In this document: piece after piece, positions 6,700-61,700 of the stretch
Numbering within the stretch: the first letter of the stretch is position 1
Layout of the letters: each line of letters opens with the position of its first letter
Origin: Octopus vulgaris
Taxonomy: Eukaryota
DNA length: 64,000 nucleotides
NCBI GenBank assembly: GCA_951406725.2
Contig: OX597841.1
Location: 12,524,001-12,588,000 of the forward strand
Reading direction: 5' to 3'
The notes under the pieces: model-generated
Database searches by the model: none
What the model was told of the DNA's origin: nothing
Seen by the model: only the letters and a program-made list of their open reading frames with translations
Made by a program: the position numbers and the translations under genes

Positions 6700-8390
6700 G
6701 GAACAGGAAAGAACATGCCTCTTCTCAAGGCCATCCTGTTTCACTTGCCTCAACAGGTCTTTGCAAGCAGAGTTTAGTGTCCAATGGAGGAAAGGTACGC
6801 ATAAGTGGAATGGTTACACCCCTGGCATAGGCCACAAGGTTATGGTCTCACTTGCGCTTGCCGAATCTTCTGAAGCACAGCATATTTCCAAAGGTCTTGG
6901 TCACTAGTCATTGCCTCAGTGAGGCTTAATTTTCGAAGGTCGTGCTTCACCACCTCGTCCCAGGTTTTCCTGGATCTACCTCTTCCACAGGTTCCCTCAA
7001 CCGCTAGGGTGTGGCACTTTTTCACACAACTATCTTCATCCATTCTCGCCACATGACCATACCAGCGCAAACGTCTCTCTTGCACACCACAGCTGATGCT
7101 TCTTAGGTCCAACTTTTCTCTCAAGGTACTTACACTCTGTCGAATATGAACACTGACATTACACATCCATCGGATCATACTTGCTTCAACCATGCGAGCT
7201 TACGCATGTGCTCAGCAGTCACGGTCCATGTTTCACTACCATGTAGCATGGCTGTTCGTACACATGCGTCATACAGTCTACTTTTTACTCTGAGTGAGAG
7301 GCCTTTTGTTATCAGTAGAGGTAAGAGCTCTCTGAACTTTGCCCAAGCTATTCTTACTCTAGCAACTACACTTTCAGCGCACTCTCTCCCACTACTGACT
7401 TGGTCACCTAGGTAGCGGAAGCTATCAACTACTTCAGCATAGAGGAGCTCTCAGGGGCATCCTGTCTTCAGCTCCTCTGTTATTGCCTGGAGGACTATGA
7501 TAAATAGGAGGGGTCTGAGGACTGAACCTTGGTGGACCCCTGCTTCTACCCGGAATTCTTCACTGTACTCATTGCCAGCCCCCACCTTACTGACAGCGTC
7601 TCACGAACCCAAACTGCATTTCATCTAAACTGACTCTCTCCCTAATCAGTTGGGCTATGACCCTCTCCGTGACCTTCATTACCTGATCCAACAGCTTGAT
7701 ACCTCTGTAATTATTTGTATCTAAAGCGTCACCTTTACCTTTGTAGCAGTTGACTATTATGCTACTACACCAGTCATTGGGTATGACTCCTTTGTGTATC
7801 ACCTGGTTAACTATACGGGTGACTAGGCTATAGCCGACACTGCCAGATATTTTGAGCATCTCTGTAGTGATTCCTGATGGGCCTGGGGCTTTCCCTGTCT
7901 TCATACTCTTAATTGCTTTATTTACCATGGAACTATCAACTCGGATAGCTTGTCCCTCTGTTGGCTCGACATTTGGCAGACTCTCATTCTCCCATTCAAT
8001 TTCTTTATTGAGCAACCTTTCATAGTGGCAGCTCCAAACCTCTCTCTTTGCATCCTCATTTAGCGCAAGTGAACCATCATCCATGCGAACACACTTCTCT
8101 CCCACCACATCACAATTCTCTCTCACACACTGTCTTGCAACACGAAATACCTCAAGTCTTTGGTCCTCACGGCGCAGAACATTGGCAAATTTTTTCTTAT
8201 CTGCTTCCCCTCTGGCTAAATAAACCTGTCTCCTAGCTCCCCTTCTTGCAGTCTGATACAATTCTCTGCTACTACCGTTCTTCCAGTCCTTCCAAGCCTG
8301 TCTCTTTTCTCTAATAGCCCTGTCAACAACATGGTTCCACCACCACGTTATTTTGGGTCGAGAGGGGACTTCACACTATCCACAAATCAG
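6700..8390 (-). mobile_element. Degenerate, internally deleted RTE-clade LINE (same family as 53905-57815)
   Basis: ORFs 7587-8261 (KAPGPSGI...KGKGDALDTNNYRGIKLL...QFGF) and 6840-7193 (RRLRWYGHVARM...GRGRSRKTW). Confidence 0.9.
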
Positions 8391-18789: not shown

Positions 18790-20100
18790 TCAAATCCTAG
18801 CTTTCTACAAAGCCCCCAGTGGATCACTCTCTTTAGATTGTCGTGTCTTTTCTGGTATTCTTTCTGTGCCAACATGCTACATTCACTTACTACATGAGTA
18901 ACACTTTCCACTTTTGATTTGCATAATCTACATTGGGAATCTACTTGGTTTTTGTCTATTTTTTGCTTTTATCCAATTAGTCCTTAATGCTTGATCTTAT
19001 GCAGCTACTAACAAACTTTCTGTCTCCCTCTCCAGCTTCCCTTTCTGCAGCTATAACCATGTCTTACAACTACTATTTGCTGCAACTAACTTTGGGAATC
19101 TTCTCTTGTCATTCAGATAATTTCTAGGTTTTTTTTTCTGGTTTTTAACTTCATTTGGGTTTTTGTTTTCCCTACGTCTTGCTGTGACTCTAGCAGCCAT
19201 TTAATAAACCCTCTTCACTATTACCTACATAGGAGTCTATATCTACTTTAGCTAACTCCACGCAGCCTTCAACTGATATTAACCTTCTTCCGCCTTCCCT
19301 TCTAGGGAGGTATAATCTTGCTTCTTTTGCCCCTGGGTGGAATCCTCCATTCATATTAAATTCCTTCCTAGTTCTTCTGTCTAGCCTTGCTAATTCAGGT
19401 TTTGTCCAATCTACAAAAGCTGCTGAGTATCTAAGTAATGATGCTGCCCAGCTCTGACCTCATTAGCTTCCTCACCCTTCTCATGTATTCCTTCTCAATT
19501 TTCCTTTTCATTTCTATAGTTAGTACCTTGTCAGATTCTAATAAATATTCAGATACTTATAACTCTCTCCTCCTTTCAATGATTTCAATGTCTGGCTATC
19601 TGGTAATTCGATGCCTTCACTGTCGACTACCCGTCCCCTTCTCATAACTAATATTGCACACTTATCTATACCAAATTTCATACCTATGTCTTTACTGGAG
19701 AGTCTTGCAGTCTGTATTAAGGAATCTCTCTCTTTTTCATTCTGACTAAAAACCTTCAGATCATCCATGTATAGTAAACGGTTAATTGTTCCCTTACTAT
19801 TTCTGAGCTGATACCCTGCCTTTGCCTTCCTTAATACTGAACTGAAGGGGATCAAACATAAGACAAATATTAAAGGGGACAAGTCCCCACAGAAAATTCC
19901 TCTTTTAAACTTTTCCTAAGAGTGTGTCACCTGTGCAGAGATCTATTTTTCCATTTCTTCATACTATAGCTTATTAATTCTCTTATGTTGTCTGCTATAC
20001 TGAATATACTCAAGCATTCACTTATCCATGAGTGTGGGATCATGTCACAGGCTTTCCTGTCTTTCATCTCATTCTTTGTTTCCATCTGATGTTTCGATAT
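18790..20100 (-). mobile_element. Old degenerate R4/Dong-like (RLE-type) LINE fragment
   Basis: ORF 19538-19882 SPLIFVLCLIP...LLYMDDLKVF...IGMKFGIDKCA...YKYL; homologous to the LINE at 58796-62595; 3' end faces the TAA array. Confidence 0.85.
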
Positions 20101-20412
20101 GAAATATTGTAACAAGAAGTCGTGGTTTTAATTTCTACCAATAATATCTGTAGAAATAACCTCCACAAAATATTTATATTCCTTTTTACTACAAAACTTT
20201 TCACCATCACTTATATTCAGTCAATAAAGATAATGGTGTATTTATATCTTCAAGTTTTATTTCTAATGATTATTCCATTGGAAACAGTTTAAATGTTTAA
20301 CTTCACTGTCAAATAAACAATTTGTTTAATATATTTAATGAAATGTGTGTTTTCCTTGAAATTGTTTGAATCAATCAACTAAATATTATTTTATCAAAAA
20401 CCTTTCACAAAA

Positions 20413-20438
20413 CTAATAAATTTTTCACTTTATTTCAG
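20413..20438 (+). promoter_or_regulatory. Candidate branch point and splice acceptor preceding the large coding exon
   Basis: CTAAT at 20413-20417, then TTTTTCACTTTATTTCAG|C; in-frame stops between acceptor and ATG 20557 imply a 5' UTR. Confidence 0.55.
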
Positions 20439-20556
20439 CTTTCATGTAAAAATTAGTGAATTTTGAAGAGATAAATTGTATTCCAAAGGAAGAAAACAAA
20501 ATCCACAGAAAAGAATATATTTAACAGAAAAAAGATAATAATTCTATATTCATAAA

Positions 20557-23500
20557 ATGGAGAAGATTAATGCAGAAAACAAAATGTTGGCTCTCATTCC
20601 TGCCACAGTCCGTGATACAACAGCAATTCACAAGGAAACTACACCAGTTCTTCCCCAAATATTATATACACGAAACACAAAGAAATCTGAAGAGGAGGAA
20701 ACGCAAAAGACAAGGAAACTCGAAGAATGGGAAAAGTCCATGTTACCAAGCTTTCTTCATATTGTGACATGTTACCGAGCAGTAATCAAAACAGACCACA
20801 TCAATACGTTTATCGATTATGTAAAGGATAATTGTAAGCGCATGGATTTAGATGGACCTTGTATTTTACATAATGTCAAACGTAAAATGCAAAGGTTTCT
20901 GGAATTTACTAAACAACATAATGATTTTGTTCACCAAAACCTTGATTGGTTTCAACAAAGACTCTTTGACATTTATGTCACCTGTAACCCATACAACCAC
21001 AAGACCATTGAACCACCAAAAGTAACCACAAAATTTCGGCCTCTTCGACCAGCTGTGACCAGAGAAGCACGGATTGAGGAATCTGGAGAAGAATTGGACG
21101 AAAGCATAATATCCAATATTATTGTCATACAGGAGGGAATGGTGACATATTCCCAACATTATATGACAATATGTTGTGTGACAAGAGACGGTGACAAAAA
21201 TGTGGTTCATTGCCCGTCTTCTGTCACAAACTTTACCAGAATCGGTGAAGACATGGTTCTGGCGACTCTGCCCTTCCAAAAAAGGATTCTTATTATCAGC
21301 CCCACAAGTATTAAGTTTCAAACAATACAGTTGGGATTCTATTTGGTTTCTTACTTGGAACATTCTACACTTATAGGCGCAGAAATGTTTGGTAAGACCA
21401 TTTACCAATTTAATTGGGAGGAAAATAGAGTTGAATATGAATTTATTACGAACGAAATACCAACAGATATTGCTGTAGGGGTCCAGAATATACTCGTAAT
21501 ATCATTTCCCGGTATTAACAGAGTAATCTGTTACAAACTGGATGGCCAACAGCTATGGGAGGTAGAGACTCATTCTCTGGACTTCCCTAGCAAAATCTCT
21601 CTGTACCAAAACTATTTCTATGTCCTCCAGGGACAAATTATTTATAGAATTTCGGCTAAAGGTGGTGTGACAAGGAGGGACATTGGCAGGAAATGCCGCT
21701 CTATTTCTGTTGCTAAAGATACTATTTTGGTAACAGATTATTTTGGCAAACCACTTGCCATTGAAACAAATAAAGACTTTTGGCCCAAACTGTCATACAA
21801 CCACCAGCTACATACCCCCAGTTTGAAAGACCGTATTTATATTGAGGATTGCTACAACATTACAAATATTCTACCTATGTCTACATCTTCTATATTAATA
21901 ATTTACAAAAACAAGAAAGCTAAATTATTCACTGATAACGGGGAAATAATTAACCAAAATAATTCAGTTTTCCTTGAGCTTCCTTCTTTATGTTGTAGAA
22001 TTAACGCAAACAGATTCCTGGTATTTTATCCTGAAATGAAAGGATTTCAGAATATCACCTGTCCTGAACTAAGAAAAGGCCCTTTAATAAAGGTTCAAAC
22101 TGGTTACATGAAAATATGTCATGTTGTATCAAATAAGTGTCTAGCTGTGACCACCACTGAAAACAAAATCGAGGTCCATATCCTATTGATCAACGAAGAT
22201 AAAGTTGACATTGCAGAAAGAATTTCTCTGGGACATCATAATGTCACCATTGCTGCAACTCCAATTAATTTTGTAGTTGTAGATGGAAACGAAAATAAGA
22301 TGGTATTTTATTCCACATGTGGTGAAGAACTTTTTCAAAAATACCTTCCATTCTATGGCTACCCTCATCACATCTACTCTGATAATGTTTATTTCTATGT
22401 TCTCTTCAGGAGACACTCTATTCTCAGATGTTACGATCTATATGGAGAAATTAAATGGCAATGGAAACTACCTTTCCCTGTTCACCCTCACATTGCTGTT
22501 TTCCAAGGAACTGTTTATGTCCCGGACACTCAACTCAACAGGGTTCTTCTTTACAAGTATCAAGACTGGTCGTCTGGATGTTGTTTACATATGAAAAATC
22601 CTTATATCAGAAATCTAAATCTACAACTCAAAGAAAAGGAGAAAGACAAAGTTGTCATTGGTGAAATATGTAATCTGGCTGATGAACAGTTGGTGGTGTC
22701 AGACATCAACCATGATTGCTTGTTGTACATTTCTAAAGAAGGAGACATTGTGTCTAGACTATCTCTGCCGTCTACAGCCACAGATATATGTCGATGGGAT
22801 TCTAATCATATAGGTGTCACATTACCCCTACAGAAACAATTAAGGGTCATTGGAAACCTATCAAAGACAGTGAGAAGTGTATCATTAGGGCAGCCTTATT
22901 TACGGGCATGTAAGATGGGTGAAGGTAAAATTATTTGTTATTGTGATAAACCATCACTTTTAAATATTTTAGCCATCAATTATTATAATAGAGTTGAAGT
23001 AATTAAGACAATTAATATCCCTGTTTTTGTGAAATCGTTATCAATAGAAAAAGAAACACAAAAGCTGTTAATTGTCACTAGGGGAAAAGCATTTCAGTAT
23101 AACACTACAATAGGTGGTGGTGGTCATGGCACTGGTGATCATCATCGTTGTAGTATTAAGATGGTCCCCAGTGTTTTAATGTCCCAAGTGAAACGTCCCC
23201 TCAGTCTCCAAGGTGGATCTATTGACCAAACATTTGTTTATCTTATAGATGACAGCCGTATGTTTGCTATAAACAATCATAATTTGTTGGTTAATGATCT
23301 CGTTAAAAATAATCAACTTAATTATTATATCGATCTGGTGGATGTATTTTCCAGAAACATTTCTGTCAGTGAAATGTTGTCTTCCACTTTATATCTTCAG
23401 GACCTGACAGTTTCTGATAAAGCCAGACATATTCCTCTCCGTCAACATTTGGGAGACAAAGAGCGAGTGGAGATTAAATGTTTGGTTCTGACTGGAAATA

Positions 23501-26118
23501 ATCTGATTGCAGGATGGGACGAGAAGAATGGAAACATTAAGATATTCACATTGGATGGTCAACTTGTGGGTTCTATCAAATTCAGTTTTTATCGATATAT
23601 TAAAATGTGTCGATGGCAGTCAAACACACTGGTTATTACGAATTGGGATGGTTTAGATAATGACTACCAAATGTTGACATTAAAAGTGGAATTTCCATTG
23701 TCATTGGTGGTTTGCCAGACAAGAAATGAATATAAATGTGTGGCTTCTTTATCAAACAATCAACTGGTTTGTAGCAAATTGGGACGGAGAGATGGACGTA
23801 GCTTATATTTTGTTGATATTGATGAAACACATTCGAATGTGAATGAAATTAAAAAAACAGACATACCTGAAACATTATTACTTAGAGACGAATATCATCA
23901 AATTTATATTAATGACATCTGTGATATTAAAGTTACTGCTGACGATGACATCATTGTCTACAACACAAGATTCATCATTTTCTTCGACAGTGATGGTCAA
24001 TATTTACATTCAGTTAGACACTACAGGAAGGCTGATGTTCTTACAGATGACAGGATGACAACTGCTGACAATTATTTCTACATTTATGGTGTGTGGGATA
24101 AATATGTTAATTTAGCGCAATATCATAGCATTGTGTGTTTGACCCAGACTGGGGAATACGAGAGAATATTTTTAAATAAAAGAATTTATAAAGATGAAGT
24201 AGAGTTCTTCAATATAGACTGTAAAGGACCAAGGTTTGTTGGAAGCCACTCCAAAATTGGAAGAGAGAATGAATTGTATATTGAAGGGTTATTTATGGCT
24301 AATCGAGACAGCTTCCCGGTTGCTCGTTTACAAACAGACAAATGTCCTGTTCAAGTAAAAGATTTTGATGTCTCTGAGGAAGGAAAGACAGTTGTGTGTG
24401 AAAAAGCCAATAATGGAAATGTTAAAATATTTGATGAAGACGGCCAGTTGCTATGTCACAGAAATGTTGCAAGTTTAGTTGGTGGTGTGTGTTTTACACA
24501 AGAATCACACATAATGGCCACGGTTCCTAAAAGGAAAGAAATATTTCAACTGAATCGAGAAGATTTGCAGAATTATCAAGTTTGGCAAAGTCAAGTGCCT
24601 TATGGTGTAATATGGAGAAAAGTGAAGAATATTTACTTGTGTGTACATATTGAATTGATTGAATGTCATTGCATAAAGATTGATGGGGACCAAGTGAACA
24701 TTCTGGAATCGGTGTCTTTATTAAATCTTGATTCTGGTCTTCATTTCCCTTCCATTACTTCTCAGATGAACAAGGAAATATTCACTGACGAATTGATTAG
24801 TAAATCGAAATATAGTGAAGGAGATGAAGGAAGAAGTATATCAGGTGAAATAATTAGTAAAGGTAGATTTAAGGTGAGATGTGGTAATTACATAGCGGAG
24901 AGTAAGTCAGGAATTGATGAAATATCAGTGAGGAGACTTCCATATAGGACAGCAATGGTCCCTCTTTCCATTCCTGCATTCGAGGAACCTGTTAATTATG
25001 ATTTGTGGGACAGCAAGGACTGGAACAATAAACTAATTAAGTTAGATGAGAATGTGAGTGTGTTGATGTTTAGAAAAAGTGTCACCTTAATCAGCACAAC
25101 AACAGGTGACATACTGCAACATGAACAACTCCCACAACAACAACAACAACCAGCACTGAACATATTTCAGTGGACATTTGAATACATAAAGGCCTTCTTT
25201 TCCAAACAACAACCACAACATCAACAACTCCCACAACAACAACAACCAGCACTGAACATATTTCAGTGGACATTTGAATACATAAAGGCCTTCTTTTCCA
25301 AACAACAACCACAACATCAACAACAACCACAACATCAACAACCACTGGATATCTGTCGGTGGACAGATGAACATTTCATAGTCGTCTTTGGTAAAGAAAT
25401 GATGGTCTTCGACAGGGATCTCCGTCGTTTAAAAACCATAAAAACTGAGAAATACTACAACACGATTTATAAATATAACGACAATCAACTCGTGTGTGGT
25501 GGTCATCATTTTAGAAACATACATGAAATGACAGACTCAAGTGAGCTTTATTACGTTTGCGAAGAGTCTGAAGCGAACGACTCTTATTATGTGGATGTGG
25601 TTGATATGAAAGATGGGAAATGTAAAGATGAAGTGTGTCGTGGAAAGAAGGGGAGGTGGAGAAGGATTGATGGAGATGCGAGGGTACTTGATGTAAGAGT
25701 CACATCTTCGGGTGATGTGGTTGTTATGAGGAGGGAGCTGGAAATAGATAAGACGGCAGATGATTTCTCGATTGTGGAATGGTTCAGTGAAAATTCGTTG
25801 GTCAGGAGGATAAGAATAGGAGAAAAAAACGAGAGGGGATATTATATTCAAAGATGTCGTTTAGCCACAATTGGTGAATGTGTTTATATAACAGACAGAC
25901 AGAACAATATTTTCCAAATACCTGGACATATTGAACAACAAACATCCGAAGATATTGAAATCCTGTCTTTGAAAAACGATGCAAAATATTTACTCCTCAG
26001 GACTGATGATAATGAAGTCTTTGAAGTTCTTGGTTTTGATGCTTCAGAAAATTCTTTCATGGTTTTTGGAATTATTCCTGGACGTCAATCTTTTGCTTTC
26101 TTTCATTATGACAAATAA
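20557..26118 (+). CDS. Uncharacterised 1853-aa single-exon protein: short N-terminal helical region plus about six tandem NHL-like beta-propeller domains
   Basis: 5562-nt stop-free ORF in AT-rich DNA; Kozak-like AAAATGG; repeated blade motifs such as ICNLADEQLVVSDINHDCLLYISKEG...LPSTATDICRWDSNHIGVTLP, NNLIAGWDEKNGNIKIFTLDG, GKTVVCEKANNGNVKIFDEDG and VYVPDTQLNRV resemble molluscan TRIM/NHL C-terminal domains; AATAAA overlaps the stop (26114-26119). Confidence 0.88.
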   Translation: MEKINAENKMLALIPATVRDTTAIHKETTPVLPQILYTRNTKKSEEEETQKTRKLEEWEKSMLPSFLHIVTCYRAVIKTDHINTFIDYVKDNCKRMDLDGPCILHNVKRKMQRFLEFTKQHNDFVHQNLDWFQQRLFDIYVTCNPYNHKTIEPPKVTTKFRPLRPAVTREARIEESGEELDESIISNIIVIQEGMVTYSQHYMTICCVTRDGDKNVVHCPSSVTNFTRIGEDMVLATLPFQKRILIISPTSIKFQTIQLGFYLVSYLEHSTLIGAEMFGKTIYQFNWEENRVEYEFITNEIPTDIAVGVQNILVISFPGINRVICYKLDGQQLWEVETHSLDFPSKISLYQNYFYVLQGQIIYRISAKGGVTRRDIGRKCRSISVAKDTILVTDYFGKPLAIETNKDFWPKLSYNHQLHTPSLKDRIYIEDCYNITNILPMSTSSILIIYKNKKAKLFTDNGEIINQNNSVFLELPSLCCRINANRFLVFYPEMKGFQNITCPELRKGPLIKVQTGYMKICHVVSNKCLAVTTTENKIEVHILLINEDKVDIAERISLGHHNVTIAATPINFVVVDGNENKMVFYSTCGEELFQKYLPFYGYPHHIYSDNVYFYVLFRRHSILRCYDLYGEIKWQWKLPFPVHPHIAVFQGTVYVPDTQLNRVLLYKYQDWSSGCCLHMKNPYIRNLNLQLKEKEKDKVVIGEICNLADEQLVVSDINHDCLLYISKEGDIVSRLSLPSTATDICRWDSNHIGVTLPLQKQLRVIGNLSKTVRSVSLGQPYLRACKMGEGKIICYCDKPSLLNILAINYYNRVEVIKTINIPVFVKSLSIEKETQKLLIVTRGKAFQYNTTIGGGGHGTGDHHRCSIKMVPSVLMSQVKRPLSLQGGSIDQTFVYLIDDSRMFAINNHNLLVNDLVKNNQLNYYIDLVDVFSRNISVSEMLSSTLYLQDLTVSDKARHIPLRQHLGDKERVEIKCLVLTGNNLIAGWDEKNGNIKIFTLDGQLVGSIKFSFYRYIKMCRWQSNTLVITNWDGLDNDYQMLTLKVEFPLSLVVCQTRNEYKCVASLSNNQLVCSKLGRRDGRSLYFVDIDETHSNVNEIKKTDIPETLLLRDEYHQIYINDICDIKVTADDDIIVYNTRFIIFFDSDGQYLHSVRHYRKADVLTDDRMTTADNYFYIYGVWDKYVNLAQYHSIVCLTQTGEYERIFLNKRIYKDEVEFFNIDCKGPRFVGSHSKIGRENELYIEGLFMANRDSFPVARLQTDKCPVQVKDFDVSEEGKTVVCEKANNGNVKIFDEDGQLLCHRNVASLVGGVCFTQESHIMATVPKRKEIFQLNREDLQNYQVWQSQVPYGVIWRKVKNIYLCVHIELIECHCIKIDGDQVNILESVSLLNLDSGLHFPSITSQMNKEIFTDELISKSKYSEGDEGRSISGEIISKGRFKVRCGNYIAESKSGIDEISVRRLPYRTAMVPLSIPAFEEPVNYDLWDSKDWNNKLIKLDENVSVLMFRKSVTLISTTTGDILQHEQLPQQQQQPALNIFQWTFEYIKAFFSKQQPQHQQLPQQQQPALNIFQWTFEYIKAFFSKQQPQHQQQPQHQQPLDICRWTDEHFIVVFGKEMMVFDRDLRRLKTIKTEKYYNTIYKYNDNQLVCGGHHFRNIHEMTDSSELYYVCEESEANDSYYVDVVDMKDGKCKDEVCRGKKGRWRRIDGDARVLDVRVTSSGDVVVMRRELEIDKTADDFSIVEWFSENSLVRRIRIGEKNERGYYIQRCRLATIGECVYITDRQNNIFQIPGHIEQQTSEDIEILSLKNDAKYLLLRTDDNEVFEVLGFDASENSFMVFGIIPGRQSFAFFHYDK

Positions 26119-42818: not shown

Positions 42819-45650
42819 TTGTTGTCCTTAAATGCTCGCAGTTTGTGCAACAAAATTCATTTGTTCAACGCCTACGTCGGAAGTATTGACCCTGACTTCA
42901 TCACTGTCACGGAAACATGGGCGCATTCCTTACTCTGTGATAGGGTTTTCAACATCACTGGGTACAACCTCTTCCACAAGGACCGCATTAACTGCCGTGG
43001 TGGTGGTGTGATGGTCTACGTTCGTTCAAATTTTTCAGTAATTCCTTGTGCCGATTTGAACGAATCACAAGAAGAAGTTTTTTTCTGTGATGTACGTATG
43101 ACCATGTCAACACTCCTGCTTGGTGTTGTTTATCATCCCCCAAATTACCATCGGGACACACAGCTTTGCGATATCCTCCGAGCTGCTGCCAGGAAAACAG
43201 CCACTTATGTTTTCATTGCAGGCGATTTCAATCATCCTGAGATCAATTGGGAGACCTTCCATTGGCCACAGAGTGCAAACGATTTTGTTGAGCTTGTGCT
43301 GGACTCAAACTGGTCACAAGTAGTCACCTCTCCAACAAGAGGCGACAACACCTTGGACCTGCTCTTCACCACAACTCCTGAAGCGGTTATCAATTGCACT
43401 ACGGAGGAACCTCTAGGTGACTCTGATCATGCTATGATCATCGCCAATCTGGCTCTTGCGGGCAACAAAAACCTGAACCATCTCCAATCTGCTTCCTTCG
43501 ATTGGAAGAGAGCAGATTGGAACCTGTACCACACTGAACTACAGCACCCAAACTGGCGTGAATTCTACAACTCTGGAGATGTGAATACTATACTCCAGAG
43601 TATCCTGGACTCAATATGGGCAGCATGTGCAGCATCAGTGCCACGTAAACAGAAAAAGAAGAACCGCCCCAAAAGTGCAATTTGGGAAACTTCAGCGGTC
43701 CGACTTGCCAGGAAGGAACGTCGAACTGCTGAACGGGAATTCAAGTTGCATAAATCAGATACCAACAGGAAGAAGCGGAATAAATCTTCCAACCATCTCA
43801 AGCAAGTGACAAAAAAAGCTGTGCTTGAATTTGAACAGTGCATAGCAGCCAATCCTGACAGCAAGGTTTTCTGGAAATATGTGCATTCGAAGCAGAGACC
43901 TCACTCTCCAGTGGGCCCTCTTCGCAACCCTCACACAAACCAGATCACTGACGACCCCAAGGAATGCGCAGAACTCATTGCCGAGTGCTATGCAAACATA
44001 TTCACTGTTGAAAGTCAAAATGTACCATCTTCACCATCACTAACAGCAAACTCCATAACAACTATGGAATTTACACCTGCAATGCTGCGACGTCACCTTC
44101 AAAATATTCCTCCCCTGGTCTCGATGGAGTTACATACCTGCTTCTCAAACGTGGCAGGCACTTCCTTTTACACCAGCTTTCTATTTTCTTCCAGTACTGT
44201 CTCAACAATGGTGCTACTCCGGAACAGTGGAAAACTGCCAGTGTCATTCCTCTGTTCAAAAAGGGCGACCGCACATCACCTGTCAACTATCGCCCAGTCA
44301 GTCTCACTAGCTGTATTGCAAAACTGATGGAATCGTGTGTCAGAGAAACACTTTGGAACTTCTGGAGCTCACACAGTCTCATCCGACCCTCACAATATGG
44401 ATTTGTCCCTAACTCCAGCTGCAGTGATCAGCTTGTCGAGTTCCTTGAGGACATTACTCAGATCACTGACAGTGGCTCATGGGTGGATGTTGTCTACCTT
44501 GACTTTGCTAAGGCTTTCAACTCTGTGCCACACAAAAGGCTTATGGTGAAACTCTCTGCAATGGGTGTGGGGGATGACCTTTTTAACTGGTTGAAATCCT
44601 TCATTCTCAACCGAAAGGAGGTAGTCACAGTTCTAGGACAGCATTCTACACCATATGAGATGTCATCGGGTGTACCACAGGGATCTGTCCTTGGTCCCCT
44701 CTTGTTTGTGGCATACATTAATGACATAGATGCAAATTTAAAGAATGCCACAGTATTAAAATATGCAGACGACATCAAGCTGTACCTTGAAATCAAGAGG
44801 ACAGATCCTGATGTCTACAGCTCTTTCCTGCAATCAGACCTGGACACAATGCAGCAATGGATCACAGACTGGCAACTGAAACTGGCTGTGGACAAGTGTA
44901 CCACCATGCATTTTGGGAGAAAAAACCCTGTGTCCACATACTCCCTCCACAACACTGATATCAAGAAATCCTCTTGCGAGCGTGACCTAGGCATCACTGT
45001 CAGCAGTGATTTGCGTTGGACAAAGCATATCTCTAAAATTGTCAAGAAGGCCGAGGGTGTCTTGGCATCACTCAGCAAGACTTTTGTTAGCCGCTCTGCA
45101 GCCATCTATTTAAAACTGTATACAGCTATGGTACGACCACACTTGGAATTCGCATCATCAGTTTGGAACCCCTATCTTGCTCAGAACATTGACCTCCTGG
45201 AATCTGTTCAGAAACGTGCAACCAAACGCATACCCTCCATCAGACACCTACCATATTCTGAGCGCCTTGTTTCCCTGGGCATGGATTCACTGAAGCTCCG
45301 GCGTCTGGCGACGGACTTGGTAAACGCCCACAAAGTTGTCAACCACCTCACCAATAACAACACTGAACACCTTTTTGATCTCCATGTGTCTAACACACGT
45401 GGACATGCCTACAAAGTCAGAAAACAACACAGCTCCCATGACTTTCGGAAACATTTCTTCACACTCAGAGTTGCTGAAGCATGGAATAAACTGCCTGCGT
45501 CAGTTGTTGACTGCCATGACACTGCATCCTTTAAGGCCCTCATGCTTTCCGAAATCCGTCGAAACTACACCTGATTATATATACACTTTCGATGAGTTGT
45601 AGTGCACCTGAGCACTGTACACAATGTTTATTATTATTATTATTATTATG
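42819..45650 (+). mobile_element. CR1-clade LINE ORF2 (APE endonuclease and RT), one frameshift near 44110
   Basis: LNARSL...TETW...GDFN...SDH endonuclease motifs; YLDFAKAF, GVPQGSVLGP, YADD, TRGHAYK...FFTLRV...WNKLP; (ATT)n tail. Confidence 0.95.
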
Positions 45651-48550: not shown

Positions 48551-51490
48551 CTGAAAATTGAACAAAATTCTGATTGAAAAATCAGCTACTGGATCAAAAC
48601 TTCCCAACACACAGGAGCTAGACGTACCCCACAACCGGAATATTCCAACAGATGGCCATCCATGCTCGTCACCAAATAATCAAAAGAAAAAGAAAGAAAA
48701 ATGGTCTAGGGAAGATAATAAAGAATTTCTTGAGGCCTTCTACGATGCCATATATTTCCCCACAAATAAATCTAACACTGTACAAACATACTTAAACTGG
48801 AGACAGAAACACCCTGAAGTAAGACCCTCCATAGACAGTAACAAACTTGCCAACGTCAGAAGAAGCATTATAAAAAAAAATTACTGACTGAAGTAGAGAT
48901 TGATCAAGTTAGACAAGCAATATCGGATAAAATGAACGAAGCTGCAGCTAGAGAAGATAATTATAGACCAGCCCAGGGCTGATAAAAACGAAGTAAGGAT
49001 TGAAAGAGTTAGTATAAGTGATAGGCAAAGTGAAATACTCCCTGAACCAATCATAAACACTAAGACAGATGAACATCAAATAGATGAAGAAACTCACACA
49101 AATATTGACCCAACAGAACTACATGAGCTAAAAAATCAAACCATGATTGAATGGCTGAAAATTAAAGAAACCAGCATGGATGAACGTGATACACTCCCTA
49201 AAATCCGCAACTCTAACCAAAACATGAAAATAATTGGTAAAATCCGGCTTGCACTTAAGGATATAATTTCAGCTAATGATGTTGATATCACAGATCTCAA
49301 CCACCTGTACTATGCATCTGCGAAAATCTCAACGATTCTATGTGGTGTAAAGATTAGAAAACGGCAACATTCCCACAAAAAGCCTTCTTGGCAAGAGCGT
49401 ATGCAACAACAAATTAAACCATTTAGATCTGACATTGAATATTTGAAAAACCTTAAGGTTCACAAGACTACCAAACCTACAAAAACCCCAAAATTGCTGA
49501 AAAAATACAATATGAAAACTATACTTGATATTGATGCCACCATAGAAACCATCAAACAAAAGGTATCTGCCAAAGCTGCCCGCATAGCGAGGTATGAAAA
49601 GCGTGTTAGATTTTTCAAGGACAACAACATGTTAAAAAATAACCCCAAGAATACCTCTCTCAAAACTGCTCAATAAGTACGGGTATAAAATGTTTGATAA
49701 AAATATAAATCATCACATTTACATGGATGATTTAAAGCTTTTTGCAAAAAATGACCAACAACTCAAGGGCTTACTAGCGATAGTCAAACAATTCAGTGAC
49801 GACATCAGAATGCAATTCGGCCTCGATAAATGTGCAAAAGCTACCTTTATCAAAGGAAAAATGACAGAAACATCTAACGTTAACCTTGACCAGCAGAATG
49901 TCATAAAAGAACTAGACCCAGTGGAGAGCTACAAGTACTTAGGGGTAATTGAAGGGAATGGAATAAGGCATTCAGAGATGAAGGAAAGGATCAGGAGAGA
50001 ATGCTATCGAAGAGTGAGAGCAATAATCAAGACAGAGCTGAATGCAAGAAACAGGATCGAAGCGATCAATGCATTAGCCATACCAGTCGTGACTTACAGT
50101 TTCAATATCGTTAACTGATCAATTACTGAAATATGTAATCTTGACAGAAAAATAAGGAAACTGTTGACAATGCATAGAATGCACCACCCTAAGGCAGATA
50201 CAGAACGACTTTATCTGCCAAGAAAAGAGGGAGGCCGTGGTCTTTTGCAACTGGCAATAACAATGAAGATTGCTACAATTGGCCTAGACACCTACCTGAA
50301 AAAGTCTGAGGACTGGATGTTAAAACTTGTCTCAAAACACGAAAACAAGAAAGCATCATACTCAGTAACAAAACAGGCAAAGGAATATCTAAGTGAATTC
50401 CGAATACAACAAATTTCGGAATTAGAGATAGTCATACAAGAAACAAGCACAGAAAAAGCTAGGCACATGAAAACCCGTGCTAAAACTGCGGCCTTAGATA
50501 CTCTGAATAATAAATGGCAAGAAAACCCTCTCTATGGCAAATACTCAAAGAGAGCGAATAATGCAGATATTGACAAAGCCCTGACCCATCAATGGCTAAT
50601 GGCCTCTGGCTTAAAATCTGAAACAGAAGGGTTTATCATAGCAGCTCAAGATCAATGCCTACCAACAAGAAACTACCAGGCCAACATATTAAAGAACGGC
50701 AGTAGCCCAACATGTCGTGTATGCCGACAACAAAATGAAACCATTGATCATGTTGTCTCCAAATGCAGTCTTCTAGTGCCTACAGAGTACCTCAACAGAC
50801 ATGATAGAGCAGCACAATATATTCACTGGGTAATTTGCAAAAACCTGGATTTGCCCCATGAAAAAAACTGGTGGGAACACAATCCACCTCCAGTGCTTGA
50901 AAATGACCACATCTCACTCCTCTGGAACTTCACCATTCAAACTGACAGAAAGATAGATGCAAATAGGCCAGACATCATATTGAAAGACTTCAGACAAAGA
51001 ACATGCCTCCTCATTGATATGACTGTCCCAATCGATATAAACGTATCTGTCAAGACCTACCAAAAACTGAGCAAATATAAAGATCTTGAAATAGAAATCA
51101 GCAAAATGTGGAACCTGAAGACTAAAACAATACCTGTTGTCATAGGTGCCCTGGGAATGATAGCGAAAGGGGCTGATTGCTACCTAACTCAGATACCAGG
51201 AAACCCCAAAATGGCAGAAATTCAAAAGATAGTGCTCATGGGAACTGCTCATATCCTACGCAAAATACTCTCTATGTAATCCCAAGGTTTAAAACAAACT
51301 TTTAAAAAAACATTAAAAAAAAAAATTCTATTTATTAGACATTCACTAGTTCAACACAAAAAAACCTGAAATATATGGTACACTAGGCATAACAACAATG
51401 TGAACTTCCAACCTATTGTCTCTTGAGGTCTCTGGGTGAGACTTGGAGCCAACTTGTACAGACATAAAGCAAAAGTCAAACATAGAATAA
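48549..51490 (+). mobile_element. R4/Dong-like RLE LINE, inactive, with an 855-bp internal deletion
   Basis: YMDD RT motif; CRVC...HVVSKC zinc knuckle, RHD, RPDII...IDMT...KLSKY restriction-like endonuclease; flanked by (TAA)n. Confidence 0.92.
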
Positions 51491-53938: not shown

Positions 53939-56900
53939 TTAGCGTCCGTTTTCCATGCTAGCATGGGTTGGACGGTTCAACTGGGGTCTGTGAAGCTGGA
54001 AGGCTTCATCAGGCCTAGTCAGATCTTGCAGTGTTTCTACGGCTGGATGCCCTTCCTAACGCCAACCACTCTGTGAGTGTAGAGGGTGCTTTTTACGTGC
54101 CACCCGCACAGGTGCCAGACGGAGCTGGCAAACGGCCACGAACAGATGGTGCTCTTTATGTGCCACCGGCACGGGGGCCAGACGGGGCTGGCAACGGCCA
54201 CAATTGGACGGTGCTTTTACGTGTCACCGGCACGGGGGCCAGGCGAGGCTGGCAACGGACACGAACGGATGGTACTTTTACGTGCCACCGACACGGAGGC
54301 TAGATGGGGCGGCGCCAGCAACGACCACGATCGGATGGTTTGCTTAACCACAGCTGCAATTCCCACTGATGTTGATCGACCAAACCAGCGCAAACGTCTC
54401 TCTTGCACCCCACAACTGATGCTTCTTAGGTCCAACTTTTCTCTCAAGGTACTTACACTCTATCGAGTATGAACACTGACATTACACATCCATCGGAGCA
54501 TACTGGCTTCATTTCTTGCGAGCTTACGCATATCCTCAGCAGTCACGGCCCATGTTTCACTGCCATGTAGCATGGCTGTACGTACACATGCGTCATACAG
54601 TCTGCCTTTTACTTTGAGCGAGAGGCCTTTTGTCACCAGCAGAGGTAAGAGCTCTCTAAACTTTGCCCAGGCTATTCTTACTCTAGCAGTTACACTTTCA
54701 GCACACCCACCCCCGCTACTGACTTGGTCACCTGGGTAACGGAAACTATCAACTACTTCTAGTTTTTCTCCCTGGAAAGTGACGGAAGTTGGTCTCAGAG
54801 CATTTTCAGTGTTTATTGTTCCTGAGCATCTGCCACATACAAAAACCATCTTCCTAGTTAGCCTTCCTTTGACATTGCTGAACCTCTTATGTGTCTATAG
54901 CTTACACTTGGTGCATCTTATAGAGTTTCTACCTACACCTTTTCAACAGATCGAGCAGGGCCATCTACCTGAAGGCGTTTGTGTTTGGTTTACCTTCCTA
55001 CTTATTAGGACTTTGGTTTTGGCTAGGTTGATTCTAAGGCCCTTCGATTCTAAACCTTGCTTCCATACCTGAAACTTCTCCTATAGTTCTGATAGAGACT
55101 CAGCAATTAGAGCAAGGTCATCAGCATAGAGGAGCTCCCAGGGGCATCCTGTCTTGAATTCCTCCGTTATTGCCTGGAGGACTATGATAAATAGGAGGGG
55201 ACTGAGGACTGAACCTTGGTGGACCCCAACCTCTACCCTGAATTCTTCACTGTACTCGATGCCAACCCTCACCTTACTAGCAGCGTCTCTGTACATGGCT
55301 TGTACAGCTCTCACTAACCATTCATCTATCCCTAGTTTCCTCATTGACCACCAGATAAGGGATCGGGGGACCCTGTCGAAGGCTTTCTCCATATCAACAA
55401 AAGCCAGGTATAGGGGCTTGTCTTTGGCTAGGTATTTCTCCTGCAGCTGTCTTACCAGGAATATAGCATCAGTAGTACTTTTCCCTGGCACAAACCCAAA
55501 CTGCATCTGATCTAAGCTAACTCTCTCTCTAATTAGTTGGGCTATAGCCCTCTCCGTAACCTTCATTACCTGATCCAGCAGCTTGATACCCCTGTAGTTA
55601 TTTGTATCTAGGGCGTCACCTTTACCTTTGTAGCAGTTGACTATTATGCTGCTACACCAGTCATTGGGAATGACTCCTTCGTGTATCACCTGGTTAACTA
55701 TACCGGTGACTAGGCTATAGCCGACACTACCAGATATTTTGAGCATCTCTGCAGTAATTCCTGATGGGCCTGGGGCTTTCCCTGTTTTCATGCTTTTAAT
55801 TGCCTTAACTACTAAGGAACTGTCAACTCGGATTGCTGGTCCCTCTGTTGGGTCAACATTCGGCAGACTCTCTTCATCCCATTCATTTTCCTCATTCAGT
55901 AACCTTTCATAGTGGCTTCTCCAAACCTCTCTCTTTGCATCCTCATTTAGTGCAAGTGAGCCGTCATCCATGCGAACACACTTCTCTCCTACCACATCAC
56001 AATTCTCTCTCACACACTGTCTTGCTATACGAAATACCTCAAGTCTTTCATCCTCACGGCGCAGGACATTGGCAAATTTTTTCTTATCTGCTTCCCCTCT
56101 GGCTAAATAAACCTGCCTCCTAGCTTCCCTTCTGGCAGTCTGATACACTTCCCTGCTACCACCGTTCTTCCAGGCCTTCCAAGCCTGTTTCTTTTGTCTA
56201 ATAGCCCTGTCAACAGTATTGTTCCACCACCACGTTATTTTGGGTCTTGTGGGGACTTTGCACCAGCCACAGATCTGGTCAGTGGCTTTCAGCAGGTTGT
56301 CCCTTAGAAGCGCCCAGTTATCTTCTACCCCATGTGTAGCTATACCCCCTTCTATTTCGTCGAAGGCTTCAAGTAACATGTCTCTAAATCTCTGTCCATT
56401 TGCAGGGTCTTTAAGCTTCCAGACCCTTCTTCTCCATGTTGGTCGTCTTCTAGTCATCCTCTTAGTCCTGATCCTAAAGTCACTGACTACCATTCTATGT
56501 TGTGGGGTACATTCTTCGCCTGGGAAGGTTTTGGCATTTATAAGCAGCCATCTTTCCCTTTTTCTGGCAAGGATGTAGTCGATTTGGCTAGTATGCTGGC
56601 CCGAACGGTAGGTGACCAGGTGGCTTGTCGGTTTCCTGAAGTTAGTGTTGCAAACCATAAGACTATTCGCATCACAGAACTCCAGCAGCCTGGTTCCCTC
56701 CTCATTGCGAGAACCATAACTATAGCCTCCATGAACGCCATAGAAGCCCTCAGCATATCGTCCAACATGCCCATTGAAGTCACCAGCCACAAAGAGAAGG
56801 TCCCTGTTGTTCGTCAATGAGGTGGTCTGCAGTAGGGTGTCATAGAAACGGTCTTTCTGTCCATCGGGTAACCCTGACTGAGGGGCATAGGCCGATATAA

Positions 56901-57815
56901 TAGTTGCTAAACTATGATGGAGCACTAATCTAATCTTCAGTATTCTGTCACATACTCTGACTACCTCGATAACCTTATCTACCCATTTTTCGGCAATAAG
57001 CATACCCACTCCCCCGACCCCTTCAGTATTCCCGGCCCAGAAAATCTTATACCTCTGTTCTTTACCCGTGAGGAACCTAGCAGAACCTCCTCTCCACCTC
57101 ACCTCTTGAATACAGCATATATCTACGCACCTCCGTTCAAGCAATTTGACGATCTCACCAGATCTGCCTTTCAGTGTGCCAACGTTGAGGGTGCCAGCCC
57201 TGAGGAAGTGGGAGCCAATGGACCTAGTAGCATCATGAACCTGAAAAGAAAACTCGCGTTTGGCAGTATTCATAGACAAACAATAAAACTCAAGTTCAAA
57301 CCGCGTACGTTACACCAAGGATATCTTGCAATGAATGACCACTACCTTTATGGAAAGAGGAACAGATGGGCATGAAAGACAACAGGGATGCGAAGTGTAC
57401 ATGGGAGACAACAAGGATGAGAAAATTTAGGACTTCCTGTAGCGGTGGGGACAGCGTAAGACTTTGAAGTGAAAATGGGAGACAACAAGGATGAGAAATT
57501 TTTTTTCAAGCCTTCCTGTATTGGTGGAGGGGGTGGGAGGGAGGGCGACCCGCGAAAAGTTTTATCCAGCCATACGAGCGTTTCTCCTAGAGGGGAAAAC
57601 TTATATGAAATAATAAGGTCCTGTAAGATTAATAAATATGTATTCCATATTTAACGAGATGAGGGGCTGATCGATAGACAATAATAACTAATAAATTATA
57701 CATGATATGTAATGCGAGGTGAGGCTGAAAATAATAATAAACAAAGCAACAAACTAGGGGTCAACAAATTGCATGGAATATATGAAAGTTGAGAAGAATA
57801 CGGGTTGAATTGAGT
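53905..57815 (-). mobile_element. Near full-length RTE-clade LINE (APE endonuclease, RT, PHD-like finger), inactivated by stops
   Basis: ORF 55081-57279: TLNVGTL...QEVRW...GDFNGHVG...QIDYIL, FVDMEKAFD, HQGSVLSP, YADD; continues 54460-54849; ~62-bp tandem repeats in 3' UTR; (ATG)n tail. Confidence 0.95.
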
Positions 57816-58797: not shown

Positions 58798-61700
58798 CTG
58801 AAAATTGAACAAAATTCTGATTGAAAAATCAGCTACTGGATCAAAACTTCCCAACACACAGGAGCTGGATGTACCCCACAACCGGAATATTCCAACAGAT
58901 GGCCATCCATGCTCGTCACCAAATAATCAAAAGAAAAAGAAAGAAAAATGGTCTAGGGAAGATAATAAAGAATTTCTTGAGGCCTTCTACGATGCCATAT
59001 ATTTCCCCACAAATAAATCTAACACTGTACAAACATACTTAAACTGGAGACAGAAACACCCTGAAGTAAGACCCTCCATAGACAGTAACAAACTTGCCAA
59101 CGTCAGAAGAAGCATTATAAAAAAAAATTACTGACTGAAGTAGAGATTGATCAAGTTAGACAAGCAATATCGGATAAAATGAACGAAGCTGCAGCTAGAG
59201 AAGATAATTATAGACCAGCCCAGGGCTGATAAAAACGAAGTAAGGATTGAAAGAGTTAGTATAAGTGATAGGCAAAGTGAAATACTCCCTGAACCAATCA
59301 TAAACACTAAGACAGATGAACATCAAATAGATGAAGAAACTCACACAAATATTGACCCAACAGAACTACATGAGCTAAAAAATCAAACCATGATTGAATG
59401 GCTGAAAATTAAAGAAACCAGTATGGATGAACGTGATACACTCCCTAAAATCCGCAACTCTAACCAAAACATGAAAATAATTGGTAAAATCCGGCTTGCA
59501 CTTAAGGATATAATTTCAGCTAATGATGTTGATATCACAGATCTCAACCACCTGTACTATGCATCCGCGAAAATCTCAACGATTCTATGTGGTGTAAAGA
59601 TTAGAAAACGGCAACATTCCCACAAAAAGCCTTCTTGGCAAGAGCGTTTGCAACAACAAATTAAACTATTTAGATCTGACATTGAATATTTGAAAAACCT
59701 TAAGGTTCACAAGACTACCAAACCTACAAAAACCCCAAAATTGCTGAAAAAATACAATATGAAAACTATACTTGATATTGATGCCACCATAGAAACCATC
59801 AAACAAAAGGTATCTGCCAAAGCTGCCCGCATAGCGAGGTATGAAAAGCGTGTTAGATTTTTCAAGGACAACAACATGTTAAAAAATAACCCCAAGAATT
59901 TTTACGGGAAGATAGGAAAAACAGTGTTTACTGCAAGGTCTGTACCATCAAAAGAAGAAGTGCAGAGATTTTGGAATAAAATCTGGGCAGAAGAAAAAAC
60001 ACACAACGAAAAGGCCCCCTGGATTGACAGAATATCTACAGAACTGGAGCCCTTAGAGGAGCAAAAGTGAGAAGGTGTCAAGGTAGAAGATATAAGATCT
60101 ACTCTCAGGAGGTCAAGCAAATGGAAGTCTCCAGGAAAGGATAAAATTCCTAACTTCTGGCTGAATGCCTTCCCAGAGAGCCATGAACTGCTAACAGAAC
60201 TGTACAATGATGTTTTGCAACACCCTAGTAGGATGCCTCCATGGCTAGTTAATGGGTTAACATTCCTGCTTCCAAAAAGTGAAGAAACAAATGAACCAAA
60301 AAAACTATAAACCCATAACCTGCTTAACAACTATGTACAAAACGCTAACATCTGTCCTGACGGAATATACTTATAGTTTTTTAACAGACAGCAGCATATT
60401 CCCTAATGAACAGAAAGGATGTAAACGTGGATCCTACAGCTCTAAAGATCAACTACTCATCAATAAGATGATCTTAGAAGATTGTCACAAACGACACAAA
60501 AACTTATCAATAGCCTGGATAGACTATAAAAAGGCTTTGGATAGCCTACCACATAGGTGGATTAGGAAATGCCTGGAAATGTATAAGATAGCACTTACTC
60601 TGCGAAACTTTTTGACTGTAAGTATGAGATCATGGAGAACCACACTAACTTTGAACAGTGACAATGAATCCCTAAATGCTGGTGATGTAAAAATTTTGTG
60701 TGGCATTTTCCAGGGTGACTCACTGTCACCACTCCTCTTTTGTTTAGCCTTAATACCTCTCTCAAAACTGCTCAATAACGCGCAGCACGGGTATAAAATG
60801 TTTGATAAAAATATAAATCATCTCATTTATATGGATGATTTAAAGCTTTTTGCAAAAAATGACCAACAACTCAAGGGCTTACTAGCGATAGTCAAACAAT
60901 TCAGTGACGACATCAGAATGCAATTCGGCCTCGATAAATGTGCAAAAGCTACCTTTATCAAAGGAAAAATGACAGAAACATCTAACGTTAACCTTGACCA
61001 GCAGAATGTCATAAAAGAACTAGACCCAGCGGAGAGCTACAAGTACCTAGGGGTAATTGAAGGGAACGGAATAAGGCATTCAGAGATGAAGGAAAGGATC
61101 AGGAGAGAATGCTATCGAAGAGTGAGAGCAATAATCAAGACAGAGCTGAATGCAAGAAACAGGATCAAAGCGATCAATGCATTAGCCATACCAGTCGTGA
61201 CTTACAGTTTCAATATCGTTAACTGATCAATTACTGAAATATGTAATCTTGACAGAAAAATAAGGAAACTGTTGACAATGCATAGAATGCACCACCCTAA
61301 GGCAGATACAGAACGACTTTATCTGCCAAGAAAAGAGGGAGGCCGTGGTCTTTTGCAACTGGCAATAACAATGAAGATTGCTACAATTGGCCTAGACACC
61401 TACCTGAAAAAGTCTGAGGACTGGATGTTAAAACTTGTCTCAAAACACGAAAACAAGAAAGCATCATACTCAGTAACAAAACAGGCAAAGGAATATCTAA
61501 GTGAATTCCGAATACAACAAATTTCGGAATTAGAGATAGTCATACAAGAAACAAGCACAGAAAAAGCTAGGCACATGAAAACCCGTGCTAAAACTGCGGC
61601 CTTAGATACTCTGAATAATAAATGGCAAGAAAACCCTCTCTATGGCAAATACTCAAAGAGAGCGAATAATGCAGATATTGACAAAGCCCTGACCCATCAA

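Follow-up and report, generated by a model that had tools for sequence, protein, structure and literature searches.

A clustered octopus gene family predicted to encode chains of six NHL-type propeller units, with signs of diversifying selection on the fourth unit

In the passages of PMC4015489 that treat them, TRIM-NHL proteins number three to five in fly, worm and mammals, and the top face of the NHL propeller, made by the b-c and d-a loops and described as electropositive, is given as the ligand-binding surface. The TRIM subsets of fish (ftr/finTRIM, btr, trim35/hltr) and TRIM5alpha are described in parts of PMC3137616 as multigene and recombining, with hypervariable ligand loops under positive selection. 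The chromosome-scale cephalopod papers treat expansions of protocadherins, zinc fingers, GPCRs and crystallins, and in the passages covered NHL, propeller and tripartite-motif families go unmentioned; NHL was likewise absent when the term was looked up in the main text of PMC9068888, PMC13218726, PMC9635652, PMC9795677 and PMC13428168. Here we describe a gene in a 64,000-nucleotide (nt) stretch of the Octopus vulgaris genome (assembly GCA_951406725.2, contig OX597841.1, positions 12,524,001 to 12,588,000 of the forward strand; hereafter the window), which is predicted to encode a chain of six NHL-type propeller units and belongs to a family whose loci number more than 100. No description of this multi-propeller family was found in literature searches, which covered openly accessible main texts.

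The gene is an uninterrupted open reading frame (ORF) of 1853 amino acids (aa) at 20557-26118 on the plus strand, free of internal stops in the standard code, as had been stated in a preliminary description made from the sequence letters. The same description had proposed a unit of about 250-300 aa that recurs about six times. The features of the gene are listed by window position, with pLDDT standing for the predicted local distance difference test score and UTR for untranslated region.

20060..20438, plus strand: conserved non-coding stretch upstream with an acceptor-like 3′ end, probably the end of a 5′-UTR intron; common to 35-38 of 112 other loci
20439..20556, plus strand: probable 5′-UTR portion of the coding exon; all three frames stopped
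20557..26118, plus strand: coding sequence, one exon, 1853 aa; aligns without intron-sized gaps to full-length paralogs
20710..20985, plus strand: N-terminal region with predicted helices, aa 52-143; model confidence low, pLDDT ~30-47
21049..21774, plus strand: predicted propeller 1, aa ~165-406, NHL fold; structure and profile match, purifying selection
21799..22578, plus strand: predicted propeller 2, aa 415-674, NHL fold; structure and profile match, mostly constrained
22600..23406, plus strand: predicted propeller 3, aa ~682-950, NHL homologue; profile match and strand pattern, constrained
23413..24294, plus strand: predicted propeller 4, aa 953-1246, with a hypervariable predicted top face; structure and profile match, selection tests
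24313..24942, plus strand: unit 5, aa 1253-1462, incomplete propeller of low divergence; model strands and partial profile match
24943..26115, plus strand: predicted propeller 6, aa 1463-1853, top loops variable and indel-rich; model and profile match
25117..25344, plus strand: in-frame 96-nt tandem duplication in a propeller 6 top loop; Tandem Repeats Finder period 96, 2.3 copies, 94%

Two AlphaFold2 models, made from 34 and 37 natural sequences, had mean pLDDT values of 66 and 69. Four-stranded blades repeat along the chain in these models, and the strand pattern is consistent with six blades. The first predicted blades of the six units start at aa 187, 436, 701, 973, 1267 and 1492, and the unit starts named in the preliminary description (180, 425, 700, 970, 1265 and 1495) fall at or near them. 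Single-model structure searches covered units 1, 2 and 4, and it was found that TRIM-NHL domains were the top structural matches of all three, including in a search of 48,161 representative chains. Unit 1 matched TRIM71 (VIA Z 20.5, root-mean-square deviation (rmsd) 2.9, 224 aligned), unit 2 matched Brat (VIA Z 22.8, rmsd 3.3, 253 aligned), and unit 4 matched Mei-P26 and Brat (VIA Z 21.8, rmsd 3.4, 253-254 aligned). Repeated blades of this kind are what had been anticipated from the letters.

The units are very divergent from one another. BLASTP of the protein against itself gave the diagonal only. In Smith-Waterman comparisons of unit against unit, z reached 9.9, and 0 of 200 shuffles scored as high in 5 of 15 pairs; comparison of family profiles gave expectation (E) values below 1e-3 in 10 of the 15 unit pairs, the best reversed control having an E of 0.027. 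These results bear out the recurring unit.

A profile of single-NHL TRIM-like proteins matched every unit, with E values of 2e-23 (unit 4), 1e-16 (unit 3), 2e-10 (unit 6), 3e-9 (unit 1, by hhalign), 4e-9 (unit 2) and 4e-8 (unit 5), and reversed controls of 0.078 or more. A profile of units 1-4 matched the NHL domain of Brat at an E of 4e-4 and, when run against 1.84 billion representatives, retrieved 55 proteins, namely family members followed by bacterial-type repeat proteins and single-NHL proteins. The best non-family eukaryotic match was a Sepia RING-B-box-NHL protein (P0072), with an E of 9e-12 on unit 4. These profile comparisons show homology of each of the six units to the TRIM-NHL propeller, and unit 4 is the unit closest to single-NHL TRIMs. 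The claim of six NHL-like propellers thus stands for all six units by profile and for units 1, 2 and 4 by structure, and has to be amended for unit 5, which is incomplete.

In the model, unit 5 has three blades and a probable last blade flanking a non-β segment of about 50 aa, with pLDDT below 50 at aa 1389-1444, and the same layout is found in distant paralogs and in Argonauta. It covers only the first 119 columns of the TRIM NHL profile. Because the profile alignment spans three blades and the middle of the unit is non-β and of low confidence, unit 5 is likely a remnant of roughly four blades. The unit 3 model has the repeating four-strand pattern in five blades, and its last blade lies at the model end with low confidence. 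The 96-nt duplication in propeller 6 encodes a Gln-rich part and a predicted helix, is similar to the start of the adjacent blade, and is private to this locus among the 113 compared; the apparent orthologue in O. bimaculoides (P0006) has a single copy. A contig of sequencing run X6 jumps 96 nt at 25136-25233.

Pfam gave no family above cut-off for the 1853-aa protein, and a PDB sequence search with the single protein gave nothing above threshold. RING queries found nothing at E<0.1 within the window, and there is no RING in the precomputed domains of 50 of 50 relatives; likewise, no B-box was found by Pfam, in window queries, in the 50 relatives or in the 20 kb upstream of 10 paralogs. Hydropathy in a 19-residue window reached a maximum of 1.35, with no transmembrane segment, and no signal-peptide-like segment was seen by a simple N-terminal hydrophobic count. 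The preliminary description was therefore correct that RING, B-box and transmembrane segments are missing. Its helical N terminus of about 180 aa was partly upheld: helices are predicted, spanning aa 52-143 only and at the low confidence listed above. These helices did not match a TRIM coiled-coil profile (E 0.21), the N-terminal region had no credible match in the PDB (best E 0.005, a designed repeat protein), and its best Atlas score, 0.82, is a lead only.

The genome also contains about 15 single-NHL TRIM-like genes (20 stretches fetched; L162-L179), in many of which a single open frame spans both the coiled coil and the NHL domain, so that a single coding exon in the six-unit gene is unsurprising. 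When 47 domains were placed in a tree, the copies of each unit from this gene, from two distant paralogs and from Argonauta came together as one clade; therefore, the six-unit layout is older than those splits. Units 1-3 grouped together (97/91). A single origin of the units was neither shown nor rejected by the unit tree (p-AU 0.405, by the approximately unbiased (AU) test), the deep branches being unresolved. The single-NHL gene L167 lies 2 Mb from the paralog L107 and is the best or near-best match of every unit, and was rejected as progenitor because the tree does not pair it with family units. Also set aside were P0069, P0075, P0083 and P0079, long multi-stretch matches that proved to be unrelated DUF5122/CARDB-type repeat proteins, and L161 (G000:C21:2.55 Mb), a candidate multi-propeller link with a low-complexity tail. 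The 1838-aa open frame of L161 has a RING, a B-box, a coiled coil and a very long tail rich in Ser/Thr, and it has no propeller.

A count of paralogs had been proposed when the family itself had not yet been seen. Unit 1 gave 146 matches in the genome, with 150 of the 161 candidates scored, and manual merging reduced these matches to 113 loci: 88 on contig C28, 7 on C27, 7 on C31 and 11 elsewhere. A genome search with unit 4 added 13 stretches, 11 of which (L144-L154; G000:C28, 6.7-10.3 Mb) are copies, 96-99% identical over 2-8 kb, of a single family pseudogene with a truncation and an internal deletion. A 471-nt piece of these copies is 93-98% identical to intact genes and the remainder 69-81%, which suggests a conversion tract or a chimera. 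An ORF of at least 1590 aa is present in 36 of the 113 loci, and 33 loci were used as intact references for judging the other 80. These 80 are broken or partial in the assembly; 68 of them span more than 90% of an intact coding sequence, and since 49 of the 68 have frameshifts and no in-frame stop, some broken copies may be assembly errors. Of the 157 simple indels in broken loci, 34 lie in homopolymers of at least 4, compared to a background of 8%.

Among 50 named full-length relatives, 49 are from O. vulgaris, O. sinensis and O. bimaculoides, and one, with 37% identity, is from Argonauta hians. For P0006, the locus in the window ranks first in five of seven regions. Word-based searches found no multi-unit relatives in squid, cuttlefish or other molluscs, and these searches also missed the Argonauta protein and the L121-type members, so the absence outside octopods is weak. 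The lineage restriction that had been suggested is supported, named relatives being found only in Octopus and Argonauta, and so is a derivation from single-NHL TRIM-like proteins. Old divergent members are L121 (C2), L105 (C28:20.39 Mb), L107 (C9) and L101 (C25). The singletons L121 (94-96%) and L105 (90-94%) are evenly conserved across Octopus species over the six units and are candidates for an ancestral or helper function; L101 is uneven, with unit 4 at 71% vs 80-93%.

The N-terminal region exists in several swappable types across the family, paired with differing unit-1 types. One subfamily, seen at L098 (with the upstream L142-L143) and in copies on C31 (L099, L100 and others), has no helical N terminus and has an in-frame start at the acceptor. 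Gene models P0130, P0067 and P0140 fuse MIB2-like ankyrin/RING exons to this helix-less subfamily; a RING exon is present some 12 kb 5′ of L098, but O. sinensis models use a different short exon, and the ligase fusion is putative. Other variants include a repeat of the last ~85 codons 3′ of the stop codon (L045, L053, L078, L081), length variants inside unit 3 (L054, L013 and L002-type copies) and a 2526-aa model with the units repeated twice (P0002), possibly two neighbouring genes joined by annotation. In the C28 cluster, C2H2 zinc-finger genes are interspersed among the family loci (L082, L083 and upstream stretches).

Selection was evaluated in 29 long-ORF paralogs, with six distant members and one truncated member excluded. 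The pairwise ratios of nonsynonymous to synonymous substitution rates (dN/dS) of units 1-6 were 0.30, 0.42, 0.45, 0.71, 0.64 and 0.75. On per-unit trees and with columns adjoining indels masked, the likelihood-ratio test (LRT) statistics of site model M2a against M1a were 14.5, 54, 22, 428, 30 and 189. Null simulations gave a statistic of 0 in the 2 runs without recombination and of 0-47 in the 4 runs that included it. Because recombination alone can give values up to 47, only units 4 and 6 stand clear; the value of unit 2, which has five selected sites on the top face and none on the bottom, is near the noise level. When thirds of a unit were placed on separate trees, the statistic was 110-148 for unit 4 and 44-71 for unit 6, and in 13 young paralogs alone it was 303 and 118, respectively. 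By the dN/dS comparison that the preliminary description had proposed, units 1-3 are under purifying selection among the 29 paralogs.

Under M2a, 9.9% of unit 4 sites were selected, with an omega of 6.9. It was found that 23 of 109 predicted top-face sites were selected, compared to 0 of 102 on the bottom and 2 in mid-strand (p 8e-8). A model-free estimate in the 13 young paralogs gave a dN/dS of 1.96 for the top (95% 1.30-3.08) and 0.32 for the bottom, with a similar dS on both faces (0.077 vs 0.061); in all 29 paralogs, the values were 0.94 and 0.40. The O. bimaculoides orthologue, which was outside the fit, was identical at 11 of 25 selected sites vs 199 of 238 other unit-4 sites. Selected sites hold 5-11 different residues each and alternate between basic and acidic, which is unlike a fixed nucleic-acid surface. 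Unit 4 is therefore under strong diversifying selection on its predicted top face. For unit 6, 12 of 121 predicted top sites and 0 of 94 bottom sites were selected (p 0.001), and the signal of diversifying selection is weaker, being obtained with the site model only. AU tests rejected the trees of units 3, 4 and 6 on one another's data (p<=0.0003); this discordance, together with the pairing of N-terminal types with different unit-1 types, indicates that the copies are mosaics that recombine.

The description of the gene as intronless holds for the coding part, which is one exon. A conserved acceptor-like site that ends at 20438, 118 nt 5′ of the ATG, and stops in all frames before the ATG, including one in frame with the ORF at 20539-20541 (5 codons ahead), point to a 5′-UTR intron, probably located upstream of the coding exon. 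Three paralogs are 89-91% identical to the window from 20058-20060 onward, acceptor-like contexts of one of three kinds precede the ATG in 95 of 113 loci, and a comparison of the 20 kb upstream of 10 paralogs with the window gave, among the matches listed, no non-repeat block in common beyond ~20060. Contigs from four runs (from four studies), guessed to be of RNA origin, cover 22-30 of 30 bins of the gene, and some of their pieces, 297-507 bases long, match this locus exactly. One contig, of run X1 (9 differences), passes unspliced across the acceptor region at 20060..20438.

We lean, by a small measure, towards the interpretation that the gene encodes one of a repertoire of variant intracellular receptors or sensors for foreign proteins, with signalling or disposal taking place in trans. 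A receptor repertoire in an arms race would suit what is seen: a soluble protein with one strong and one weak variable face, three constrained propellers and no catalytic or ligase domain, encoded by a multiplied and shuffled cluster. In such a receptor, the top face of propeller 4, aided by propeller 6, would bind a surface of a pathogen-derived protein, with a specificity that differs between paralogs, and propellers 1-3 and the unit-5 remnant would serve as a constrained scaffold for docking a host partner. With RING and B-box lost, the protein would act in trans, so that a ubiquitin ligase or other effector is recruited or the target is merely sequestered, and the repertoire would be renewed by duplication, unit-wise recombination and loss, like the fish multigene TRIM subsets. 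We infer the ligand binding, the partner, the location and the immune role of the protein. The "multivalent sensor or scaffold" of the preliminary description accords with the tandem propellers; its units are, however, not equivalent, with 4 and less clearly 6 variable, 1-3 constrained and 5 incomplete. Clusters of mollusc B-box/NHL genes exist as it stated, and none of the papers found confirmed that they are implicated in immunity. A broader proposal, offered tentatively and with somewhat less than even confidence, is that octopods evolved their own germline-encoded intracellular immune repertoire from six concatenated TRIM-NHL propellers, with propeller 4 (together with 6) as an antibody-like variable face recombining between copies, the rest as a constant scaffold and the old singletons as shared helpers.

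Several points weigh against a receptor repertoire. No effector domain was identified in the protein, so the output step is conjecture. The codon model was a custom M1a/M2a script and not PAML, with branch proportions fixed from nucleotide trees and naive empirical Bayes site assignment. The faces were assigned from DSSP strands of the models (mean pLDDT 66-69), some merged strands being split by hand, and the face table was made after the selected-site lists of units 1, 4 and 6 had been seen. For unit 6, the model-free dN/dS was equal on the two faces (top 0.69 vs bottom 0.68, which are not young-clade figures), and the selected sites were not faster between orthologues, with 10 of 12 identical vs 216 of 233 other sites. 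Assembly errors or mis-phased haplotypes in the tandem cluster could add false differences and copies. Transcription is suggested by contigs of material only guessed to be RNA, and the contigs thinly cover upstream non-coding DNA too, one matching it exactly. Transposon or reproductive conflict likewise generates diversifying selection.

The last point leads to the alternatives. The proteins might be genome-defence adaptors, whose variable faces read proteins or RNAs of transposons and endogenous viruses and whose constant propellers recruit silencing or decay machinery in an intragenomic arms race. We regard this as unlikely, although it predicts the same selection pattern as that observed, retroelement-like ORFs are abundant in the window, some family copies adjoin C2H2 zinc-finger genes, and short basic clusters occur within the N-terminal 170 aa of 17 of the 36 long ORFs. 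However, the copy in the window has no such basic cluster, and zinc-finger clusters are present on several octopus chromosomes according to parts of PMC9795677, so their proximity may be incidental. A role as RNA regulators, in which the propellers bind RNA like Brat and TRIM71 and the paralogs have come to recognise distinct RNAs, endogenous or foreign, seems to us a poor prospect. The nearest solved folds are RNA-binding TRIM-NHL domains, RNA surfaces of NHL domains evolve fast in the account given in parts of PMC5908797, and by crude residue counts the top faces of units 2, 3 and 4 have mean net charges of +3.8, +2.6 and +4.7, with negative bottoms. By the same residue counts, in contrast, the top faces of units 1, 5 and 6 are net negative, the top charge of unit 4 spans -2 to +12 among paralogs with 19% of the selected sites acidic, and an omega near 7 would, we infer, rarely be driven by endogenous mRNA targets.

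Neutral birth and death, in which a scaffold gene was spread by segmental duplication and relaxed constraint, gene conversion and assembly error mimic selection, would account for the many broken or partial loci (80 of 113), for the co-duplication of at least 11 near-identical pseudogene fragments and for test statistics up to the 47 reached by recombination alone. It is very unlikely as a general explanation, and for unit 4 it is already largely excluded: the tree-free top-face dN/dS exceeds 1 while dS is alike on both faces, relaxation would not restrict change to one face, units 1-3 stay at 0.30-0.45, and the O. bimaculoides orthologue is far less conserved at the selected sites than elsewhere in unit 4. 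Conflicts over reproduction and self-recognition also yield clustered, recombining, positively selected families, and the observed pattern would be expected if the proteins were gamete, meiotic-drive or allorecognition factors inside cells. With no signal-peptide-like or transmembrane segment and no tie to gonads, we consider this the most improbable of the explanations.

Elsewhere in the window, long ORFs are either simple repeats or retroelement-like. Those at 1203-1907, 7587-8084, 43011-45574, 49143-51279, 55081-57273 and 59390-62189 we take, from their motifs, to be reverse-transcriptase/endonuclease-like retroelement ORFs, and two of these six are near-duplicates.

The family is similar in size to known cephalopod expansions and, because it has no Pfam label, is easy to miss. 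As a receptor repertoire it would be a concrete candidate for recognition diversity in an octopus, which is without lymphocyte receptors, and one that names a domain and a face; it would also be a new use of the NHL fold, tandem and ligase-free, in which some units vary and others stay constant. Octopus aquaculture would have an interest in such a resistance locus. If the broader proposal were true, octopods would have a propeller-based counterpart of the NLR and finTRIM repertoires.

Compared with known systems, the octopus units share the six-bladed NHL fold of TRIM-NHL proteins (Brat 1q7f/4zlr, Mei-P26 7nyq, TRIM71 6fpt/8j72, TRIM2/3 7qrv/7qrw, Thin and NHL-2) at Z values of 19-23, along with weak sequence homology (E 4e-4, identity 10-15%) and a cytosolic-type sequence. 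TRIM-NHL proteins, however, have one C-terminal propeller with RING/B-box and few members, whereas the octopus protein has six units, neither zinc module and N-terminal helices that do not match the TRIM coiled-coil profile, and its family exceeds 100 loci. In sequence, every unit is closest to the cephalopod single-NHL TRIM-like proteins (Sepia P0072; L162-L179, such as L166 and L167), which have RING and/or B-box, a coiled coil and one propeller and whose genes are dispersed, in contrast to the massing of the octopus family on C28. LRP/megalin YWTD chains, teneurin, DDB1 and tandem WD40 proteins also have several propellers per chain and fill the whole-model Foldseek lists (TM 0.14-0.23). 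LRP and teneurin, though, are secreted or sit in the membrane and have different spacer domains, unlike the octopus protein without a transmembrane segment, and the seven-bladed WD40/DDB1-type propellers reach a Z of ~17 to the octopus units, below the six-bladed NHL domains, with sequence homology favouring TRIM-NHL. The fish TRIM subsets and TRIM5alpha share with the octopus family a clustered expansion and selected ligand loops (unit 4, and unit 6 by the site model), but they combine RING, B-box and coiled coil with one B30.2 domain, whereas the variable module in octopus is predicted to be an NHL propeller in a six-unit chain without a ligase domain. Therefore, the octopus family resembles a variable TRIM family in its behaviour, yet it is not a TRIM family but an NHL-fold family.

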